In this document: positions 17,795 to 28,413 of the stretch, piece by piece | How positions within the stretch are numbered: position 1 is the first letter of the stretch | Layout: every line of letters starts with the position of its first letter | NCBI GenBank assembly: GCA_035762305.1 | Contig: DASTPH010000096.1 | Location: 984-64,983 of the forward strand | Length of the DNA stretch: 64,000 nt | Direction of reading: 5' to 3' | Source of the DNA: Anaeromyxobacteraceae bacterium | GTDB lineage: Bacteria > Myxococcota > Myxococcia > Myxococcales > Anaeromyxobacteraceae | Position numbers and translations under genes: made by a program | Notes under the pieces: generated by a model | The model's input: only the letters and a program-made list of their open reading frames with translations | Database searches by the model: none | Told to the model about the DNA's origin: nothing

Positions 17795-18844
17795 CTAGAC
17801 GATCGCCCACGGCCGGGGGCGGAAGATCTCGTCCCAGGTGCCCAGGGCGAAGCGGTCGGTCATGCCGGAGATGAAGTCGGCGACCGCCCGCACCGGCGGC
17901 TCCCCCGGCCGCGGCGCCACTCCGTAGCGCGCCTCCAGCCGGCCCGGGTCCTCCAGGCACCATCCGAAGAGGTCCCGCAGGATGCGCTGGGCCTTCTCGA
18001 ACTCGTCGTGCACGACCGGGTTCTCGTAGACGCGGGCGTAGAGGAAGTCGCGCAGCGCCAGCAGCGCCTGGTGGACGGCGTCGCTCATGACGATGTGGCC
18101 GCCGCCGTCCACGTCCGAGGCGGTGATGACGTCGTGGATCAGGGTCGCGAAGCGCTGCGAGTGCCCCGGTCCCAGGGTGCGGCGGATGTCGGCCGGAACG
18201 TCCTCCTCCCGGAGCAGCCCGCCGCGGACGGCGTCGTCCAGGTCGTGGTTCACGTAGGCGACGATGTCCGCCAGGCGCACCACCTCGGCCTCCAGGGTGA
18301 GGGCCTTCTCGCCGCTCCCCTTCATGAGCACGGTCCCCTTGCCCTTGGAGTGGCGCAGGATGCCGTCGCGCACCTCCCGGGTGAGGTTCAGCCCCTGGCC
18401 ATCCCGCTCCAGCACCTCCACCACCCTGAGCGACTGCATGACGTGGTGGAACCCGCCCGGGACCACCTCCGACAGCAGGCGCTCGCCGGCGTGGCCGAAG
18501 GGCGTGTGCCCGAGGTCGTGCCCCATCACCATGGCCTCGACCAGCATCTCGTTGAGCCGGAGCGCCCGGGCGATGGAGCGGCCCACCTGGGCCACCTCCA
18601 GCGTGTGGGTCATGCGGTTGCGGTAGTGGTCGCCGCGCGGAGCCAGGAACACCTGGGTCTTGCCCGCCAGGCGGCGGAAGGCCTTGGAATGGAGGAGGCG
18701 GTCGCGATCGCGCTGGAAGACGGGGCGCTCGTCGTCGGCGGGCTCGGGGCGCTCGCGGCCGAGGCTCCTCGCCGAGAAGGCCGCGCGCGGGTGCAGCGTG
18801 CGCGACTCCTGCTCCTCCAGCATCTCGCGGATGGTGCCTCGCAT
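17795..18844 (-). CDS. dGTP triphosphohydrolase-like HD-domain protein
   Basis: Motifs RMTHTLEVAQVGRSIA, GHDLGHTPFGHAGE, VNHDLDDA. Confidence 0.85.
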   Translation of the reverse strand: MRGTIREMLEEQESRTLHPRAAFSARSLGRERPEPADDERPVFQRDRDRLLHSKAFRRLAGKTQVFLAPRGDHYRNRMTHTLEVAQVGRSIARALRLNEMLVEAMVMGHDLGHTPFGHAGERLLSEVVPGGFHHVMQSLRVVEVLERDGQGLNLTREVRDGILRHSKGKGTVLMKGSGEKALTLEAEVVRLADIVAYVNHDLDDAVRGGLLREEDVPADIRRTLGPGHSQRFATLIHDVITASDVDGGGHIVMSDAVHQALLALRDFLYARVYENPVVHDEFEKAQRILRDLFGWCLEDPGRLEARYGVAPRPGEPPVRAVADFISGMTDRFALGTWDEIFRPRPWAIV

Positions 18845-18910
18845 GGCCGTCTTCTAGCGCGGCGGCGGACGGATGTCAGGCCCGGTCGTTCCCCGGCGTC
18901 CCGGTCTCGC

Positions 18911-18959
18911 GCGGGGCCGACGGCGCGGACGCACCGTACCTCGGCGAGGCCCGGGCGGT
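18911..18959. repeat. 49-bp direct repeat, copy 1 (copy 2 at 19207-19255)
   Basis: gcggggccgacggcgcggacgcaccgtacctcggcgaggcccgggcggt recurs at 19207-19255 with 2 mismatches. Confidence 0.8.
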
Positions 18960-18962
18960 TCC

Positions 18963-19197
18963 CGGCGTCCCGGTCTCGCCTCCGGCGGCTGGTCCTCGCT
19001 CGCGACCAGGGCAGTCAGGGCCGCGCGGGGGCGGGGACCTCTCGGCGGCTCGCAAACGGCGGTCGCGCATCACGCCGACCGCGCGGAACGTTGGCGCTCC
19101 GCGCCGGTTGTTCGCCGCGAGCGCGGCATCGGGGCCGCGCGCTTCCGGGCCGCCTCGGCTCGCTGCGGAGGCCGCCTCCGTCGAGACCGGGACGCCG
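18963..19197. repeat. IR-bounded ~235-bp intergenic repeat, copy B
   Basis: 16-bp terminal inverted repeat: cggcgtcccggtctcg (18963-18978) and cgagaccgggacgccg (19182-19197). The core aligns along its length with 27199-27400. Confidence 0.75.
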
Positions 19198-19580
19198 AAG
19201 GCGGGCGCGGGGCCGACGGCGCGGATGCGCCGTACCTCGGCGAGGCCCGGGCGGTCCGGGCGCTCGATGGGATCGTCGCCGGCGGCCACGGCCCGCTTGA
19301 GGCCGCCTCCGCAGCGCCACGCTCGGAGACCCCGAACCAGAGCGCCGGGGCCTCGCTCCGCCGGCGCTTCCCCGCAGCCGCCCGAGGAGGCGGTGGAAGC
19401 GGCGCCGCGCCGATGGGCCCGATGTCGCGACGGCGAACACGCGCCGGGAACGCGACCAGGAAAGCACGGGACGAGTCCCGCCTTTCGCCGCCGCGCCACG
19501 AGCACCGCGGGCGCGGTGCCGCCATGGACGCCACGTGGCGGCGAGGACACGCGCCGGCGGAGCGAGGCCCGGCGCGACCC

Positions 19581-20321
19581 TCACCGCCCGTAGAAGCTGG
19601 CCTCCAGCACCGCCAGGAAGAGGTTCGAGAGGGCGTGCACCAGCACCGGCGCGGCCAGGTCGCCGCTGCGGGCCCGGAGCCACCCGAAGAGCAGGCCGGG
19701 GAAGAAGGTGCCCAGGCGCCAGGGCTGGAGACGGACCAGGTGCCCCAGGGCGAACAGCGCCTGGGTGGCGAGGAAGCCGCGCCCCAGGTCGGCTCCGAGC
19801 AGGCGGACCCTCCGCGACGGGTCGCTCGCCGCCCACGAGGTCTGCATCCATCCCCGGTAGAAGAGCTCCTCCGGGAGCGCCACCACCAGCAGCTGGCTCA
19901 GGGCCAGGAGCCCGAAGCCGTCGGGGAGGCGCAGGCGCGGCCCCGCCGGCGGCCCGTAGGGCGCGAGGAGCCGGGCCCATCCCGGGGGCAGCTCCGGGAG
20001 GAGGCGCGAGAAGGCGGCGAAGCCGAGGACGAAGAGCGGGAACACCACCGCGCACACCCCGAGGGCCCAGAGCGCGCCCCGCCCCCAGGCCCGCCAGGTG
20101 CGCCCGTCCCGGACGCCCCACCAGGGCAGGCCGTAGCGCTCCCAGCGCTCGCCGCGGGCGCGCAGACGGCGGTCGGGGAGCACCACGAAGAGCAGGGCCG
20201 CCACGCCGGCCAGGTTCCCGCGCAGGAGCCCGGTCGGCTCGACGAGCGAGACGGCGCTGGCGGCCGCCAGGAGCCCGACGGCCGCGGCCCAGGTGGCGAG
20301 GAGCGCGCGGGGGGCGTCCAC
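19581..20321 (-). CDS. CPBP-family intramembrane glutamic endopeptidase (CAAX protease-like)
   Basis: All three CPBP motifs are present: PEELFYRGW (EExxxR), ALFALGHL (FxxxH), HALSN (HxxxN). Polytopic; GTG start. Confidence 0.85.
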   Translation of the reverse strand: MDAPRALLATWAAAVGLLAAASAVSLVEPTGLLRGNLAGVAALLFVVLPDRRLRARGERWERYGLPWWGVRDGRTWRAWGRGALWALGVCAVVFPLFVLGFAAFSRLLPELPPGWARLLAPYGPPAGPRLRLPDGFGLLALSQLLVVALPEELFYRGWMQTSWAASDPSRRVRLLGADLGRGFLATQALFALGHLVRLQPWRLGTFFPGLLFGWLRARSGDLAAPVLVHALSNLFLAVLEASFYGR

Positions 20322-20476
20322 CGGCCCTGTTTCGCCCGGGCCGGGGCGGGAGTCAAATCCCCCGAATGGCTGTGGGGTCCGCTCTCACCCTGTCACCATC
20401 CGTGCGCGCGGGTCGTAGGAACCCCACCGGCCTGCCGTGGTATGACCCGTGAAGTTTGTCCAGGAGGAGGGCTCAC

Positions 20477-23400
20477 ATGCGTCACCCCGACCGTTCCCGG
20501 TTCCGCCGCGTCGCCCCGGCGCTGGGGCCGGCGCTCCTCGCCGCCCTGGCGCTGGTGCTCATGGCCCCGACCTGCCAGCCCACCACACCAGGGGTGAAAA
20601 CGTTCGCCAAGGGGTCGATCGTCATCCCCATGGACGCCTGCTACCAGGGCGACGCCGCGGTGACCCCCACCTCCTGCTCGGCGCGCGACGTCGGCAACGT
20701 CATCCAGGCCTACGGCCTGGTCTACCAGCTCATCCGCAACAACATCCCGGTCTACTGGGTCATCAAGCAGAACAAGGCCTCGCTCACCGACGTGGACCTC
20801 ACCGTCCAGCTCTCGGGCGGCCCGCCGGTGGGGGTCTACGACTGGACCAACGGCGCCACGGGCGGCATGCCGCCCAGCAACGCCAACCCCATCGACTACC
20901 GCGGCGGCCCCTTCGTCGTCGACGCCAGCGACTTCGCGGCGGCGAATGCCCTGTTCCAGACCGGCAACGCCGGGACCGGCACGCCGGCCCTGAAGACCCT
21001 CTACTCGGCCGTGAACCTTCACGTCACTCAGGTGGCCTTCCAGGGGTACGCCGCCAAGACCTTCGCCGGAGGCTGGAACGCCGGCGGGACGGTGGCCCCG
21101 AAGCTGGCCCTGCTCAACATCCCGGGCGGCGACGGACGCTACGCCGACCACGTGCTGGAGGGCTATCTCATCCGGGCGGCGCTGGCGCCGGCCTGCGTGC
21201 TCAACAACCCGCCCTGCGCCGACAACTCCGCCGGCACCGCCAGCCCCTCCGGCCACGGGACCATCTACGACCGGCTGGAGGCGGCGGACTTCATCCCCCC
21301 GACCTGCACCAGCACCGCCCAGTGCCAGGCCGTCGAGCCGACCTCGATCTGCGACACCGGAGCCGGGCGTTGTGACTGGAAGGCGACCAACTTCCATAGA
21401 TACAGCTACCGGATCCTCTGGCTGCCTCATTGGAAGGGCCCGAACTCCTGCGAGGGCGTCCTCGGCAACGGCTACTCGTGCGGCACCGGCTTCGGCGGCT
21501 GCGGCTTCGCCGGAAGCGACACCTGCAGTTGCGTCAACAACTGCACCGCCCAATTGACCGCCGCCGAGCTCGACCTGGTACTCAGGACCATCGGCGCCTT
21601 CCAGCAGGCGGGCAACGACGTCTTCGGGGAGTGCGCCGGCCTGGGGACGCTCGAGGGCGTCTACAACGCCGGGACGGCCACGGTGGACGGCTCATTCGGC
21701 GACGGCGAGGCCACCAGCCGCTTCCAGACGTCGTGGGGGACGGGCGGCTCGGGCGGCGGCATGCACATCAGCGCCACCGCGCCGACGGCGGCCTGTACCG
21801 CCGGCCAGGGCAGCAAGCAATGCGTGAACGGCGCGCTCTACGAGCCGTCCTACTACCCCTCTCCCTTCCTGCAGCTCGGCGACTTCCCCTTCACGCCGGT
21901 GAGCGGCGCCATCACCGAGTACCGCCCCGCCACCGGCAACGGCGCCACCGGCTACGTGGGCGGGGTGGCCACGCTCATCGCGCGCATGAACGGCGGCACC
22001 GAGGTCGACTACTTCACGTTCCTCCCGGGCGTCGCCGACCGAGGCAACGTGGTCTACCTGGGCGGCCACGACTACTCCGGCTACCAGGGCACCTTCCAGA
22101 TCGCCGGCACGCGCCTGGTCCTGAACACCCTCTTCAACCTGGGCGCCGCCTGCGTGGAGACCTTGGCCCCCTGCAGCACCGGGCAGCTCGGCGTCTGCGG
22201 CGAGGGGGAGATGCGGTGCGTCGGGAGCGTCCCCACCTGCGTGCAGAAGAACCAGCCGTCGGCGGAGGTCTGCGACGGCAGGGACAACGACTGCAACGGC
22301 GCGGTCGACGACGGCCTGGTCCAGTCCTGCTACGACGGCCCGGCCGGGACCCAGGGCGTCGGCATCTGCCACGGAGGGACCAGGACCTGCGTGGAGACCT
22401 CGCCGGGCAACTTCGGGATGAGCGCCTGCCTGGGCCAGGTCCTCCCCGCCGCCGAGGAATGCAACGGCCTCGACGACGACTGCGACGGCCAGGTGGACGA
22501 CGGCCTCGGTTCGCGATCGTGCTACGACGGCCCGCCGGCCACGCAGGACGTGGGCACCTGCCGGGCCGGCACCCAGACCTGCTCCAGCGGGAGCTGGGGC
22601 ATCTGCAACGGCGAGGTGCTGCCCCTGGGCTACGACGTCTGCGAGCCGGTCCAGGACACCAACTGCAACGGCGCCGTCGGCGACGGCTGCGGCTGCTACC
22701 CCCAGGGCTCGACGCGCCCGTGCTACGGCGGGCCGGCCGGGACCGAGAACGTGGGCATCTGCCGCGGCGGCGCGCAGACCTGCGGCGCCAGCGGCATCTT
22801 CGGCAACTGCGACGGCGATGTCCGCCCAGGCGCCCGAGCCTGCAACGGCCTCGACAACGACTGCGACGGCGTCGTCGACACCGAGCAGCTGTGCTGCGAC
22901 GGCGGCGCTCCGGCGTCGAGCCGCACCTGCTACGGCGGACCAGCCGGCACGCTGGGCGTGGGCGTCTGCCGCGGCGGCACGCAGATCTGCGTGGGCGCCG
23001 CCTGGTCCTCGGGGTGCGACGGCCAGATCCTCCCCGGCCCCGAGCTCTGCAACGCCAAGGACGACGACTGCAACGGCGTCCCGGACGACGGCACGCCCAT
23101 CTGCCCCCCCGGCTCGAGCTGCGTGAACGGCGTGTGCGTGCCGGGCTCCTGTGGTCCCGAGGGGCCGTTCTGTCCGGGCGGCTACACCTGCACCGGCGCG
23201 AGCTGCGTCATCGGGAACTGCGGCGCCGGCGGCCCCTGCACCAACGGCCAGGTCTGCCAGGGCGGTACCTGCGTCGACCCGTGCGCCGCCATGACCTGCG
23301 GCCCGGGCGCCTACTGCTCCGGCGGCCTGTGCGTCGGCGGCGGCTGTTATGTCACCGGCTGCCCCGCCGGCCAGCTGTGCGTGCAGGGCACCTGCCAGGC

Positions 23401-25879
23401 CGACCCCTGCGCCGGCCGCTCCTGCCCGACCGGGACCTTCTGCCGCGAGGGCTACTGCGTGCAGTCCTGCGTCTTCGTCGCCTGCCCGACGGCCCAGCGC
23501 TGCGGCCAGGACGGCTTCTGCCAGGCCGATCCCTGCTCCGGCACGATCTGCGGCGCGGGCCAGGTGTGCCTGAACGGCACCTGCCAGACCAACCAATGCG
23601 CCTCGGTCACCTGCGGCGCGGGCCAGGTCTGCAATCCCGAGAACGGCACCTGCGTCCCCGATCCCTGCACCGGCGTGACCTGCCCGGTGGGTCAGTGCCT
23701 CTCCGGGCAGTGCTACTCCTCCAACCCCGGGGGCGGCCCGGCCCCGCCGCCGCCCATCGGCCCAGACGTGAAAGAGTCCTCCGGCTGCGGTTGCGGCTCG
23801 GCTCCGGCCGGCGAGCTGGGGCTGCTCCTCCTCGGCCTGCTCCTCCCCTGGCGTCGGCGCGCCGCCCGCCGGGCCGCGATCCGCCATCGGAGGTCGCTTC
23901 GCCACGCCGGGGCGGCGCTGGCCCTGTTCCTGGCCCTGACCGCCGCCGGCTGCTCCTCCAAGGAGGAGACGCCGAACCCCTGCACCAACCCCAACTGCAA
24001 CGGCGCCTGCGTCGACTTCCAGAACGACCCCGCCAACTGCGCGACCTGCGGCCACGCCTGCTCCGCCGGGCAGATCTGCGTGGAGGGGGCCTGCGGCCCC
24101 TCGTCGGCGGTGGCGCCGCAGATCACCGGCGTGAGCCCGGCCTCGGCCGCGAGCGGCACCACCCAGGCGGTGAGCCTCACCGGCCAGCGCTTCCAGGCCA
24201 ACGCCCAGGTGGTCGTGCTCGGGGCCGGGGCCCAGGCGGTGACCGCCTCGGTGGCCGACTCCGGCCACCTCTCCGCCACCCTCGACTTCACGGCGGTCTC
24301 TCCGGGCGCAGCCGAGATCCGCGTCGTGAACCCGGACCACGTCATCTCCAACGGCGCGGACTTCGACGTCACCCTGGCGGCGCCGGTGCTCACCGGCCTC
24401 GCCTGCCAGGGCGCTTCCTGCGTGCCGGCGAGCGGGACCTCGGCCACCACCGCCGTGGGCTCGGGCAGCCCGGTTGCGGTGACGCTGGTGCTCTCGGGGA
24501 CCGGCCTGGTCTCGTCGAGCCAGTGCCGGATCGCCTCGACGAACTTCCCCGAGATGGCCCTGCCCTCGGCCCTGTCCGGCGGGCAACTCCAGTGCACGCT
24601 CGACCTCCGCCTGACGGATCCCGGCGACTACCAGGTGACGGTGATGAACGGCGGCGTGGCCCGGTCCAACCCCCTGACCTTCACGGTCCTCACCAACACC
24701 CCGACGCTCACCTCCATCAGCCCCACCGCCGCCCGGGCCGGCGAGGTGGTGGCCCTCACCGTCACCGGGAGCGGCTTCGACCAGTCGAGCGAGGTCCTGG
24801 TCGACGGGTCCACCACCTTCAACGGCTCGGCCATCGTCACCACCTTCGTCTCGGGCACGCGCCTCGTCGCCCAACCAGTCGACCTGCGCGGCGCAGCCGC
24901 GGAAACGCACACCGTCACCGTGCGCAACGGCGCCACCGCCGGGACCGGCTCCGCCACCTTCACCGTCGACCCGGCCGCCCCGACGCTCTCCACCGTCTCC
25001 CCGACCTCGGCCAGGCAGGGCGCGGCCGTCGCCCTGCAGGTCACCGGCGCCAACTACGACGCCTCGACCCGGATCGAGGTCCAGGCGCCCGGCGCCGGGA
25101 CCTTCACGCCCATCGCCGCCACCGTGGTCGACTCGGCCACTCAGGCCCATGCGCCCTACGCCTTCGGCCAGGAGGGCTCCTGGCTGGTGCGCGTCACCAA
25201 CGCCGCCGGCGCCTCCGGCCCGCTCTCGGTGCGCGTCCTCTCCAACGTGGCCATCCTCTCCGGCGTGTCGCCGGCGAGCGCCCAGCAGGGGCAGACGGTG
25301 ACCCTGACCCTCACCGCCACCAACCTCGACGCCTCGCCGACCGTTCACCTCGCCTCCCCCTCGCTGGGCTGCCCCACCGCCCCGTGCAGCCTGGACCGCA
25401 CCCCTACCGTCTCGGGCAGCACGCTCACGGTAACGGGCCTGTCCCTGGCCGGCTGGGACGCCGGGACCTACGCGGTGACGGTGGTAAACCCGGGAGCGGC
25501 GGGCTCGAACGCGCTCGGGTTCACGGTCACGCCGGGCGCGCCGACGCTGGCCGCTCCGGCGAGCCCGGCCTGCGTGCTCCAGAGCGCGACGCCGACGACG
25601 GTGACGCTCACCGGGACCAACTTCGCCAAGCCCGACGCCGGCGGCAACGGCGGCTCGACCGTCCACGCCTCGTCGGCTGCCATCCCGGATTACGTGGTGC
25701 CGGGGGTCACCGTGACCAGCACCACCACCCTCACGGTGAGCTTCGACTCGTCGGCGGCGATCCCGGACAACTACACGCTCCAGGTCTGGAACCCCGGCCC
25801 TGCCATCCTCAAGTCGGGCACCATCCCCTTCAAGGTGGCTGCCAGCTACGCCGCGCCTCCCTTGAACGCCTGTCCGTAG
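20477..25879 (+). CDS. Giant secreted/cell-surface protein with several domain types
   Basis: Domain order: unknown N-terminal domain, MopE-like CxxxDxDCxG repeats, CxxGxxC repeats, internal MYXO-CTERM-like tag, lipobox, IPT/TIG-like repeats. RBS ggaggagg lies 6 nt before ATG 20477 (the track starts at TTG 20456). Signal peptide ALLAALALVLMAPTC. 5 x C(D/N)GxD(N/D)DC(N/D)GxVDD and 4 x CY(D/G)GPxxTxxVGxCxxGxxxC. SGCGCGSAPAGELGLLLLGLLLPWRRR at 23780-23860, then LFLALTAAGC. About 6-7 Ig-like repeats of the P(T/Q)(L/I)TxxSPxSA type. No stop codon in 5.4 kb. Confidence 0.8.
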   Translation: MRHPDRSRFRRVAPALGPALLAALALVLMAPTCQPTTPGVKTFAKGSIVIPMDACYQGDAAVTPTSCSARDVGNVIQAYGLVYQLIRNNIPVYWVIKQNKASLTDVDLTVQLSGGPPVGVYDWTNGATGGMPPSNANPIDYRGGPFVVDASDFAAANALFQTGNAGTGTPALKTLYSAVNLHVTQVAFQGYAAKTFAGGWNAGGTVAPKLALLNIPGGDGRYADHVLEGYLIRAALAPACVLNNPPCADNSAGTASPSGHGTIYDRLEAADFIPPTCTSTAQCQAVEPTSICDTGAGRCDWKATNFHRYSYRILWLPHWKGPNSCEGVLGNGYSCGTGFGGCGFAGSDTCSCVNNCTAQLTAAELDLVLRTIGAFQQAGNDVFGECAGLGTLEGVYNAGTATVDGSFGDGEATSRFQTSWGTGGSGGGMHISATAPTAACTAGQGSKQCVNGALYEPSYYPSPFLQLGDFPFTPVSGAITEYRPATGNGATGYVGGVATLIARMNGGTEVDYFTFLPGVADRGNVVYLGGHDYSGYQGTFQIAGTRLVLNTLFNLGAACVETLAPCSTGQLGVCGEGEMRCVGSVPTCVQKNQPSAEVCDGRDNDCNGAVDDGLVQSCYDGPAGTQGVGICHGGTRTCVETSPGNFGMSACLGQVLPAAEECNGLDDDCDGQVDDGLGSRSCYDGPPATQDVGTCRAGTQTCSSGSWGICNGEVLPLGYDVCEPVQDTNCNGAVGDGCGCYPQGSTRPCYGGPAGTENVGICRGGAQTCGASGIFGNCDGDVRPGARACNGLDNDCDGVVDTEQLCCDGGAPASSRTCYGGPAGTLGVGVCRGGTQICVGAAWSSGCDGQILPGPELCNAKDDDCNGVPDDGTPICPPGSSCVNGVCVPGSCGPEGPFCPGGYTCTGASCVIGNCGAGGPCTNGQVCQGGTCVDPCAAMTCGPGAYCSGGLCVGGGCYVTGCPAGQLCVQGTCQADPCAGRSCPTGTFCREGYCVQSCVFVACPTAQRCGQDGFCQADPCSGTICGAGQVCLNGTCQTNQCASVTCGAGQVCNPENGTCVPDPCTGVTCPVGQCLSGQCYSSNPGGGPAPPPPIGPDVKESSGCGCGSAPAGELGLLLLGLLLPWRRRAARRAAIRHRRSLRHAGAALALFLALTAAGCSSKEETPNPCTNPNCNGACVDFQNDPANCATCGHACSAGQICVEGACGPSSAVAPQITGVSPASAASGTTQAVSLTGQRFQANAQVVVLGAGAQAVTASVADSGHLSATLDFTAVSPGAAEIRVVNPDHVISNGADFDVTLAAPVLTGLACQGASCVPASGTSATTAVGSGSPVAVTLVLSGTGLVSSSQCRIASTNFPEMALPSALSGGQLQCTLDLRLTDPGDYQVTVMNGGVARSNPLTFTVLTNTPTLTSISPTAARAGEVVALTVTGSGFDQSSEVLVDGSTTFNGSAIVTTFVSGTRLVAQPVDLRGAAAETHTVTVRNGATAGTGSATFTVDPAAPTLSTVSPTSARQGAAVALQVTGANYDASTRIEVQAPGAGTFTPIAATVVDSATQAHAPYAFGQEGSWLVRVTNAAGASGPLSVRVLSNVAILSGVSPASAQQGQTVTLTLTATNLDASPTVHLASPSLGCPTAPCSLDRTPTVSGSTLTVTGLSLAGWDAGTYAVTVVNPGAAGSNALGFTVTPGAPTLAAPASPACVLQSATPTTVTLTGTNFAKPDAGGNGGSTVHASSAAIPDYVVPGVTVTSTTTLTVSFDSSAAIPDNYTLQVWNPGPAILKSGTIPFKVAASYAAPPLNACP

Positions 25880-25921: not shown

Positions 25922-26311
25922 TCACTCTTCCTCGCCGGCCGGGCCGATGGCCTTCTCCACCAGGGCCACGGCGGCCTCCGGCGCGAACGGCTTGCGCAGG
26001 ACCTCGTCGGCCCCGATGCGCCGGTACATCCCCATCTCCTGGTCGGAGACGCGGGCGCTCATGAGGACCAGGTACGTCTTCTTCCAGTGGGGGTGGGCCT
26101 TCACCAGCCGGCACACGTCGGCGCCGTTGATCTTCGGCATGTAGATGTCGAGGAGCAGGGCGTCGGGGTCGGCCTGGGCCATCTTCCGGAAGACCTCCTC
26201 GCCGTCGACGGCGTGGGACACGTCGTACCCCGCCTCCTCGAAGGCCCCGGTCAGGGCCTCCAGGAGCGCCGGGGAGTCGTCGACGATGAGGACCGCCTTC
26301 TTCTTTCCCAT
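25922..26311 (-). CDS. Single-domain response regulator (CheY-like receiver)
   Basis: Start MGKKKAVLIVDDSPALL. Phospho-acceptor region LLLDIYMPKINGADV, then LMSARV and LRKPF. The rest of the 480-aa track ORF upstream is an artefact. Confidence 0.85.
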   Translation of the reverse strand: MGKKKAVLIVDDSPALLEALTGAFEEAGYDVSHAVDGEEVFRKMAQADPDALLLDIYMPKINGADVCRLVKAHPHWKKTYLVLMSARVSDQEMGMYRRIGADEVLRKPFAPEAAVALVEKAIGPAGEEE

Positions 26312-26338
26312 CCCCGAGTGCTTATACTCCAGGGCGCG

Positions 26339-27154
26339 ATGGATCGCGAACCCGCCGTCGCCGGACGATTCTACCCGGCCGGAAAAGAGCGGCTCGGCAC
26401 CGAGGTGGCCGCGCTCCTGGCCGAACGCCCCAGCGGCCGGGCCACCGCCGAGCCGCCGCGGCCGGTGACCGGGGTCCTCGCCCCCCACGCGGGATACGTC
26501 TACTCGGGCCGGGTGGCCGGAGCGACCTATGCGCGAGTGGACGTCCCCGAACGGGCCGTGGTGATGTGCCCCAACCACACCGGCCGGGGCGCCCCGATCT
26601 CGGTGTGGCCCGACGGGGGCTGGTTGACCCCGCTGGGGCGGGTGCCGGTCGACCAACAGCTCACCTCCTCCCTGCTTTCGGGCGATCTCGCCACCGCGGA
26701 TCGCGAGGCGCACCGCTTCGAGCACGCGCTCGAGGTTCAGCTGCCCTTCCTGCAGCTCCGCCGCCCCGAGGTGTCCATCGCCGCGGTGTGCCTCGGCCCC
26801 CTCTCCTTCGCGCGCTGCCAGGCGGTCGGCAAGGCGGTGGCGGAGGCGGCCCGGCGACGCCCGGCGCTGCTGGTGGCCTCGAGCGACATGAGCCACTACC
26901 TCCCCGCCGCCCGCGCCCGCGAGAAGGATACCCGGGCCCTGGAGCGCTTCCTGGCTCTCGACCCGGCGGGTCTCTACGAGGTGGTGCGCCGCGAGGACAT
27001 CAGCATGTGCGGCTACGTGCCGGCCACGGTGATGCTGGTGGCGGCCCTGGAGCTGGGCGCGCGCGAGGCCGAGCTGGTGCGCTACGGCAACAGCGCCGAG
27101 GCCAGCGGCGACGAGGGCTCGGTGGTCGGATACGCCGGCGCCGTCGTCTACTGA
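26339..27154 (+). CDS. amrB: MEMO1-family protein (AmmeMemoRadiSam system protein B-like)
   Basis: Motifs PAVAGRFYPA, VLAPHAGYVYSG, SSDMSHY, GNSAEASGD. Start at ATG 26339. Confidence 0.8.
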   Translation: MDREPAVAGRFYPAGKERLGTEVAALLAERPSGRATAEPPRPVTGVLAPHAGYVYSGRVAGATYARVDVPERAVVMCPNHTGRGAPISVWPDGGWLTPLGRVPVDQQLTSSLLSGDLATADREAHRFEHALEVQLPFLQLRRPEVSIAAVCLGPLSFARCQAVGKAVAEAARRRPALLVASSDMSHYLPAARAREKDTRALERFLALDPAGLYEVVRREDISMCGYVPATVMLVAALELGAREAELVRYGNSAEASGDEGSVVGYAGAVVY

Positions 27155-27180
27155 CCGGCCTCGCGGCCACGGGTGTGCGC

Positions 27181-27421
27181 GCCGTCGGCCCCGGACTCGC
27201 CTTCGGCCGCTGGTCCTCGCTCGCGTCCGCGACAGCCGGACCGCGCGACGACGGGGAACGGGTTGCGGCTCGCAAGCGTCGGTCGCGCAGTCCGCGGCTC
27301 CTCCTGAGCATTGGCGCTCCACGACGGTTGCTCGCCGCGACCGCGAGAGCCGCCGCGCGCGCATCCGGGCGCGAGGGTGCTCGCTGCGGAGGCGGCCTCA
27401 GTCGAGTCCGGGGCCGCCGGC
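27181..27421. repeat. IR-bounded ~240-bp intergenic repeat, copy C
   Basis: Terminal inverted repeat gccgtcggccccggactcgcc / gtcgagtccggggccgccggc, 19 of 21 complementary. The core shares gctggtcctcgctcgcg, gcggctcgcaa, ttggcgctcc, tcgccgcga and gctcgctgcggaggc blocks with copy B in the same order. Confidence 0.75.
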
Positions 27422-27432
27422 GCCATCCCGCA

Positions 27433-28413
27433 TCAGGGCCACAGCGGATACCGCGCCTTCCGCCGCCACAGGAGCAGCGCCAGGAGGCCGAGCCACCCCT
27501 CCGCTCCGGCGGTGCCGCAGCCGCAGCTCGACGACCGCTCGCAGGTGGAGGAGGGGCGCGGGGCGACCTGGCCCGATCCGTAGCACACGTTGGTGGGCTG
27601 TCCGGACGGGTAGATGGCGCACAGGCCGGCGACGTCGTCCGGGTCCAGCGTCCGCTTGGCGGTCTCGCCGGACAGCGCCGAGGGGTACATGGTGGCGGCG
27701 GAGACCTCCGAGTGGCCCAGCCCCAGCACGTGGCCGGCCTCGTGCGTCACCACGTTCCGGACGTCCACGCTGATGCAGCCGCTCTGCCCGGGCGCGCCGC
27801 AGGTGGCAGCGGGCGGATCGAGGCAGGTGAAGTAGAAGCCGGGCGGGGATGGCCCGCTGCCGCCCCAGGCGTTGAGCTCCATGTCCGCGTCCACGATCTC
27901 GCCGGTGCCGGCGTCGTAGCTCACCGTGGTGAGGGCGATGACGCGGCTGTCGCCGTGGGACGGGTCGTCGCCGTCCCAGCAGTTGTACTTGTCGGCGCAG
28001 TTCACGGTGGCGGAGCCGTCGACGTCCCACAGCCGGCACGGGTCGTCCGGGGGAACCAGGTCCTGACACTGGCCGCGCCGGAACACCACCAGGTTCCGGC
28101 AGTCGAGGCCGGTGGCGGTGGAGGAGGTCGTCCCGTCCTCGACCGTCTGCATGTCGGTGCATCCGCCGGCGCCGGCCCAGGTGGTGAAGCTCGTCCGCAC
28201 CGCGTCTATGGCGGCCGCGGCGCCGCCGGGCGGCGAGGGCGAGCTGCTGCAGACGCTGGCCGCCGGGCTCGCCGCGAAGTCGTTGACCGCGTAGTGGACC
28301 TGGCGGGTGGACCACCACAGGCACAGGCCCGAGCCGGTGGTCGAGCGCACCCAGGCGTCGCCCGGCGAGGCCCAGAGGAGCAGCGCCGCGGCGCCCGCCA
28401 GGCGGCGGCTCAC
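27433..28413 (-). CDS. Matrixin/metzincin-type zinc metalloprotease with MYXO-CTERM-like C-terminal tag
   Basis: VVTHEAGHVLGLGHS (HExxHxxGxxH) plus Met-turn ATMYP. Signal peptide present. C-terminus SSSCGCGTAGAEGWLGLLALLLWRRKAR. GTG start overlaps the upstream stop (GTGA). Confidence 0.85.
   Translation of the reverse strand: MSRRLAGAAALLLWASPGDAWVRSTTGSGLCLWWSTRQVHYAVNDFAASPAASVCSSSPSPPGGAAAAIDAVRTSFTTWAGAGGCTDMQTVEDGTTSSTATGLDCRNLVVFRRGQCQDLVPPDDPCRLWDVDGSATVNCADKYNCWDGDDPSHGDSRVIALTTVSYDAGTGEIVDADMELNAWGGSGPSPPGFYFTCLDPPAATCGAPGQSGCISVDVRNVVTHEAGHVLGLGHSEVSAATMYPSALSGETAKRTLDPDDVAGLCAIYPSGQPTNVCYGSGQVAPRPSSTCERSSSCGCGTAGAEGWLGLLALLLWRRKARYPLWP

Follow-up and report, generated by a model that had tools for sequence, protein, structure and literature searches.

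Myxosortases, predicted in 2023 (Haft, 10.1101/2023.06.07.544157) and demonstrated experimentally in 2025 (PMC11980579), are represented in Myxococcus xanthus by MrtX, the product of MXAN_2755 (10.1101/2023.06.07.544157; PMC11980579). Cleavage of the MYXO-CTERM sorting tag in M. xanthus requires MrtX, as has been shown for TraA, and MrtX cleaves the motif in E. coli; Cys-dependent cleavage of the tag has been shown only for this M. xanthus enzyme (PMC11980579). M. xanthus has 35 substrates, none of which is reported to be encoded beside mrtX (PMC11980579), and the 2023 preprint found no myxosortase in the same operon as a target in any genome examined there (10.1101/2023.06.07.544157). Anaeromyxobacter species have three to six MYXO-CTERM proteins, and the motif is found in ORFs next to mrtX that are transcribed divergently from it (Guo, Haft & Wall, mBio 2025, PMC11980579). 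Internal MYXO-CTERM motifs are rare; MXAN_5598 has been discussed as such a case, and cleavage of an internal tag appears in the literature only as a proposal, made for that protein (PMC11980579).

The 64,000-nucleotide window analysed here, by which we mean the whole stretch of DNA, has a G+C content of ∼72% and contains a locus of this kind. We read the gene at 19581-20321 on the minus strand as mrtX, the single general myxosortase of its genome and a glutamic intramembrane endopeptidase of the CPBP/Rce1 type, with a probability of roughly 0.85. The features to which the text refers are the following.

17795-18844, minus strand: dGTP triphosphohydrolase gene (dgt; NF002327, 485 bits), the conserved downstream neighbour of mrtX
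19581-20321, minus strand: mrtX, coding for a 246-aa CPBP-family glutamic-type intramembrane protease, the predicted myxosortase MrtX (predicted catalytic residues E151/E152/R156, H194 and H229/N233)
20322-20476, no strand: divergent intergenic region of 155 bp between mrtX and the giant gene
20477-25879, plus strand: giant ORF, 1,800 aa from its ATG
23780-23872, plus strand: internal MYXO-CTERM-like tag SSGCGCGSAPAGELGLLLLGLLLPWRRRAARR, the presumed MrtX cleavage site
23900-23953, plus strand: lipoprotein-type signal peptide within the ORF, RHAGAALALFLALTAAG-C, immediately behind the Arg-rich loop
25922-27364, minus strand (that of mrtX): ORF with a C-terminal response-regulator receiver domain
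27433-28413, minus strand: matrixin-like metalloprotease (HEAGHVLGLGHS) with a putative MYXO-CTERM tag at 27445-27531

An earlier, sequence-only reading had described the mrtX product as a 246-aa polytopic CPBP protein with intact EELFYR, FALGH and HALSN motifs and had put it forward as a candidate sortase. The motifs are present at residues 151-156, 190-194 and 229-233, and at least five strongly hydrophobic 19-residue segments are compatible with a polytopic protein. The gene starts with GTG and has a GC3 of 0.96, measured over its stop-to-stop frame. Scoring against the NCBIfam myxosortase models as well as the generic PF02517, with the curated NCBIfam scores as family cut-offs, agrees with the proposed type: the protein reaches 193.1 bits with NF040593 (myxosortase MrtX; cut-off 180, E = 6.7e-57), in a match spanning profile positions 39-238 of 238, and 122.8 bits with NF040914 (Mrt_core, the myxosortase core; cut-off 100), and it lies under the cut-offs of the models for MrtP (173.4 bits, cut-off 250), MrtC (145.6 bits, cut-off 195), MrtS (66.7 bits, cut-off 130) and MrtJ (51.2 bits, cut-off 75). 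Pfam recognizes only a generic Rce1-like domain (PF02517, 61.7 bits, E = 8e-17, exceeding the gathering score of 22.4 bits).

Alignment of the protein with 72 homologues from across the Myxococcota (33-90% identity) shows residues E151, E152, R156, F190, H194, H229 and N233 to be invariant in all 73 sequences, and the spacing of E152, H194, H229 and N233 (42, 35 and 4 residues) is that of the M. xanthus MrtX catalytic residues E146, H188, H223 and N227 (PMC11980579). The two enzymes are thus alike in NCBIfam family, in catalytic residues and their spacing, in being encoded by a single-copy gene, and in co-occurring with tags composed of a Cys motif, a helix and an Arg cluster. Similarities to Rce1 and MmRce1, the type II CAAX prenyl proteases of PF02517, extend to the fold family, to the EExxxR, FxxxH and HxxxN motifs and to a predicted cleavage beside a lipid-modified Cys; the substrates of those proteases are cytoplasmic CAAX boxes, whereas those of MrtX are C-terminal transmembrane-helix tags on exported proteins.

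The source genome, from a member of the Anaeromyxobacteraceae, comprises 4.79 Mb in 205 contigs and is 94% complete, so that an additional Mrt gene, or additional tags, may have escaped the census. Six PF02517 paralogues are present, mrtX included, and mrtX is the only gene in the genome to match Mrt_core over its cut-off, the next-best paralogue scoring 37 bits. Exactly one Mrt_core gene is found in 60 of 61 Anaeromyxobacteraceae genomes, the sole exception being a 73%-complete assembly. A scan of the source genome with TIGR03901 gave only sub-threshold matches, and the tag census was made instead with a family-specific profile built from Anaeromyxobacteraceae sequences. It yields about seven tag-bearing ORFs.

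C96 (the contig of the window), giant ORF: tagged ORF
C96, 27433-28413, minus strand: tagged ORF, metalloprotease
C55, 39024-40604: tagged ORF, second metalloprotease paralogue
C29, 512-3811: tagged ORF
C33, 18278-19207: tagged ORF
C130, 4501-6237: tagged ORF
C130, 11538-13883: tagged ORF, marginal

Five of these roughly seven proteins are therefore encoded on contigs other than that of mrtX. The co-localization of tags with CPBP genes, which the sequence-only reading had suggested be examined, is accordingly partial: two tags lie near mrtX and five elsewhere, and in the genome scan the five remaining CPBP paralogues are all on contigs devoid of tagged ORFs. Among the relatives, 29 of the 61 genomes have mrtX without the giant gene, and in a single genus five genomes have neither the giant gene nor the metalloprotease but retain one mrtX, with one to four tagged ORFs each, all of them away from it. 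Because the genome contains unlinked tags, and because relatives retain mrtX in the absence of the giant gene, we regard mrtX as a general sorting enzyme.

Its linkage to substrate genes is nonetheless real. The N-terminal domain of the giant protein (profile P0004) is found in 32 of the 61 genomes, and in 30 of these it is encoded on the mrtX contig within ∼5 kb, divergently in 22 and upstream in the same direction in eight; in the remaining two it lies on a different small contig. There is no genome among the 61 in which the only giant copy is shown to be away from mrtX, and in G242 a second copy was encountered, at the margin of a different contig. The relationship is asymmetric, in that the giant gene is near mrtX in 30 of 32 genomes, yet mrtX (60/61) often occurs without the giant gene (32/61). 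In the window the two genes are adjacent and divergent, separated by a spacer that measures 155 bp, just as was first noted, and the metalloprotease, which had been placed about 7 kb away, lies 7.1 kb from the mrtX start. An MXAN_2677-like metalloprotease is present in 34 of the 61 genomes and is less than 10 kb from mrtX in 18. Two of the seven tags lie within 8 kb of mrtX where ∼0.02 would be expected by chance (P ∼2e-4, our own estimate from seven tags and 16 kb of 4.79 Mb).

A second layout is illustrated by four fetched co-directional loci, in which mrtX starts 9-34 bp after the stop codon of the giant-like gene. The upstream gene is a shorter, tagged version that ends 9-34 bp before the mrtX GTG on the same strand (L007:2722-2732, L017:9938-9953, L021:2028-2063 and L023:1185-1208). 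From this spacing the two genes look like one operon. The genomes of the 2023 preprint differ from these relatives in this respect, and the layout, seen in some genera, qualifies the earlier statement that a myxosortase is never co-operonic with its target. The family also differs from M. xanthus with its 35 substrates in having, in the genome studied here, about seven, two of them less than 8 kb from mrtX. The cultured strain Anaeromyxobacter dehalogenans 2CP-C, whose layout is that of the window, has about three tags, and three are seen in two complete genomes of the genus g4 among the relatives. The gene is an orthologue of a known enzyme in a layout already on record in outline; the family detail is incremental and leaves the identity of the gene unchanged. 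What it adds to the literature are the family-wide numbers, including that no sole giant copy is found away from mrtX, the operon-like co-directional variant, and the persistence of mrtX in genomes without tagged neighbours.

On its other side mrtX lies in a conserved housekeeping neighbourhood, the order mrtX-dgt-hsp70 being present in all inspected loci of the family. In relatives without tagged genes, gltX on the opposite strand is followed by mrtX, dgt and hsp70; the tagged genes thus occupy a variable interval upstream of mrtX. In two relatives without the giant gene (L018 and L028) a receiver-domain ORF is directly upstream of mrtX and on the same strand. The counterpart in the window, the ORF at 25922-27364, matches PF00072 at residues 358-469 (78.7 bits). 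The 5' end of this 480-aa ORF runs into a repeat element, and the L018 counterpart has ∼136 aa; the real receiver gene is probably much shorter than the ORF, with its true start well downstream of 27364. The repeat, of ∼225 nt, is present as two direct copies at 18969-19191 and 27190-27412 that are 73-91% identical by block and have terminal inverted repeats; the copies bracket an 8-kb segment containing mrtX, the giant gene and the response-regulator gene, and the element may be MITE-like.

Three other explanations of the locus have to be weighed against a general myxosortase. The sequence-only reading had suggested a locus-specific rather than a housekeeping enzyme. On this view a dedicated protease makes up a closed sortase-substrate pair together with the giant protein, the metalloprotease perhaps included, much as MrtJ does with JDVT-CTERM. 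That cassette (Haft 2023/2024) does resemble the present locus in that a CPBP-type sorting protease adjoins a Cys-tagged target, with the Mrt core common to both, and a dedicated enzyme would fit the absence of any genome whose only giant gene is shown to lie elsewhere (30 of 32 adjacent to mrtX, two on other small contigs), the operon-like gap of the co-directional loci, and the small chance probability of two of seven tags within 8 kb. It fits poorly with a score of 51.2 bits against the 75 set for MrtJ, with the conserved housekeeping context that flanks mrtX, and above all with the distribution of genes. MrtJ is dedicated to one target and sporadically distributed, whereas mrtX is single-copy family-wide, has several targets and persists without its neighbour; where the MrtJ-JDVT system has one target per genome we find about seven tags on five contigs, and where its enzyme and target constantly co-occur we find mrtX in 60 of 61 genomes and the giant N-domain in 32 of 61. 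With one Mrt gene per genome, five other tagged proteins on other contigs, and 29 genomes that have mrtX but not the giant gene, the five of these that were checked all bearing unlinked tagged ORFs, we consider a dedicated enzyme unlikely and the claim of locus specificity not sustained.

The linkage could alternatively reflect an insertion hot spot or mobile segment rather than functional coupling, the interval between gltX and mrtX being one that tolerates insertions. Its content does differ among relatives, and in the window the ∼225-nt direct repeats enclose mrtX together with the giant and response-regulator genes. However, the cargo is not arbitrary, the interval containing time and again a gene with a MYXO-CTERM tag, that for the giant protein or that for the metalloprotease, no sole giant copy is found elsewhere, and the divergent spacer contains conserved blocks, all of which leave this explanation with little probability. 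Least credible of all is a generic CPBP/CAAX-type protease, or a protein of the bacteriocin-immunity type, that is unrelated to the tags and adjacent to them by coincidence. PF02517 alone would permit it, as would the five further CPBP paralogues, but mrtX exceeds the MrtX and Mrt_core cut-offs, no other paralogue surpasses 37 bits with Mrt_core, and adjacency to tagged genes recurs in at least seven genera of the Anaeromyxobacteraceae. The outcome that would have pointed to such a protein, a generic CPBP score and no synteny with tagged genes, is the opposite of the MrtX-level score and family-wide adjacency observed, and the giant gene beside mrtX in 30 of 32 genomes shows that the synteny is conserved. 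The general myxosortase thus remains the preferred reading.

The tags of the two neighbours share a tripartite build of Cys motif, hydrophobic helix and Arg cluster: GCGCGS...LLLLGLLLPW-RRR in the giant protein and SCGCGT...LGLLALLLW-RRK in the metalloprotease. Gly-Cys is invariant in 20 tags of the family. TIGR03901 scores both under its cut-off of 20 bits (giant, 17.4 bits, and 14.4 in the genome scan; metalloprotease, 14.0 bits, and 18.4 in the genome scan), and the family-specific profile gives 29.8 and 42.2 bits in two scans for the former and 42.3 bits for the latter. We apply the name MYXO-CTERM to both as a putative assignment, on the strength of architecture, the family-specific profile and synteny. 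The metalloprotease tag is at the extreme C-terminus, the protein ending ...SCGCGTAGAEGWLGLLALLLWRRKARYPLWP with four residues beyond the scored tag, and homologues beside mrtX in other species likewise end in tags. The protein scores 226.6 bits with NF041905 ('myxosortase-dependent metalloprotease, MXAN_2677/2678 family'), under the cut-off of 250, and 44 bits with PF00413. The second MXAN_2677-like metalloprotease of the genome, at C55:39024-40604, has the motif HEAGHVIGFDH and its own tag, GGGGCSSAGVDPTLAAAAIAALAARRR, and is unlinked to mrtX.

The giant ORF was said to carry a GCGC-helix-RRR tag, and it does, but the tag (GCGCGSAPAGELGLLLLGLLLPWRRR) is internal, with ∼670 residues following in the same frame without a stop. 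The order of parts is a signal peptide, an N-terminal domain of ∼550 aa, MopE-like and Cys-rich repeats, and the internal MYXO-CTERM-like tag, and then a lipoprotein signal peptide, an MXAN_6577-like Cys-rich region and IPT/TIG ('choice-of-anchor Z') repeats. The lipoprotein-type signal peptide ends LALTAAG-C, with the Cys codon at 23951-23953 and ∼640 residues beyond. The tag is internal in every orthologue with a tag profile match and the ORF end on the contig, and the succession of tag, Arg linker, hydrophobic helix and lipobox is conserved among orthologues with both halves on the contig; a helix with an [AST][AG]C lipobox is present at 17 of the 18 junctions inspected, and at the L026 junction a Pro directly follows the Cys. 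A search for loci with the giant tag at a true C-terminus returned as its only candidates L041 and L048, which are low-coverage or frame-broken, and so no clear case. A survey of the class for unfused C-terminal halves with NF041328 (MXAN_6577-like) found the domain to be widespread and multi-copy, and was uninformative.

The absence of a stop after the tag first suggested a frameshift or assembly error, an idea rejected on two grounds. GC3 stays flat through the junction and lies at 0.89-0.99 for all 100-codon blocks of the giant ORF, the junction included, and in none of the fetched orthologues does a stop separate the tag from the half downstream. Wherever a contig contains both halves of an orthologue, the tag and what follows it form a single stop-free frame.

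The topology predicted for the giant protein is self-consistent, the tag helix running from outside to inside, the Arg loop being cytoplasmic and the signal-peptide helix returning from inside to outside. Cuts by MrtX and by signal peptidase II would then be likely to split the one precursor into two lipid-anchored products. The parallel with MXAN_5598 is that there too the tag lies mid-ORF and has been read as the result of a gene fusion, the N-terminal part being processed and anchored at the surface; the downstream part of MXAN_5598, however, is an outer-membrane beta-barrel with an OmpA domain, whereas that of the giant protein is a lipoprotein signal peptide with IPT/TIG repeats, and, unlike MXAN_5598, the giant gene is locked beside mrtX.

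The spacer between the two genes has a length of 103-228 bp in 24 orthologous divergent loci and contains two conserved blocks, GTCAA (TTGAC on the mrtX strand) and CGTGGTAnnnT, the latter upstream of the Shine-Dalgarno sequence of the giant gene, GGAGGAGG, which is 6 nt before the ATG at 20477. A scan of 18800-20700 for consensus sigma-70 promoters and terminators found nothing, and it is from the conserved blocks that we judge the spacer to hold, probably, back-to-back promoters.

By analogy with M. xanthus MrtX, the enzyme is expected to cut the tripartite MYXO-CTERM tag, with its Cys motif, transmembrane helix and Arg cluster, off Sec-exported proteins, the cut falling after the invariant Cys, which would presumably be lipidated first; anchoring of the mature proteins and their transfer to the cell surface would follow. 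One MrtX would serve all of the roughly seven tagged proteins of the genome, and the substrates whose genes are tightly linked to mrtX in the Anaeromyxobacteraceae would be two, the giant two-part surface protein and the MXAN_2677-like metalloprotease, with the giant gene and mrtX sharing the 155-bp divergent region for their control. The data establish family membership, copy number, the number of tags and the synteny directly; cleavage of these particular tags, lipidation, and co-regulation through the shared spacer are what we infer from the comparison. More tentatively, and with the odds somewhat against it, the general myxosortase may also be a quasi-dedicated partner of a single precursor, the giant two-anchor protein, in this family. 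If so, MrtX may have to resolve the membrane hairpin of the giant protein while that protein is being made, and the linkage would be no accident of history: it would have been selected for co-expression, or as a way to keep a toxic precursor from remaining uncut. With few substrates, of which two lie beside the enzyme and one of these is an internal-tag precursor, the genome-reduced Anaeromyxobacter lineage would offer a simple natural setting in which to dissect MYXO-CTERM processing.

The ∼550-aa N-terminal domain of the giant protein (window 20477-22150) has many residues that are invariant among orthologues and matches no family in Pfam or NCBIfam. Its AlphaFold2 model (mean pLDDT 67.6, pTM 0.72) gave no Foldseek match to the PDB at E <= 0.001, and showed a weak, non-significant likeness to class-I glutamine-amidotransferase-like or ThuA-like folds (best E = 0.025). 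The N-terminal signal peptide (window 20477-20590) ends ...LVLMAPTC, and its Cys, C33, is invariant in 22 orthologues; if this is a lipobox of atypical form, as it may be, the N-terminal part would have lipid anchors at both ends. At the other end of the protein, the long and short versions alike terminate in ...(S/A)CP-stop (window 25868-25879; L007, L017, L021 and L023), such that a C-terminal Cys-Pro is conserved.
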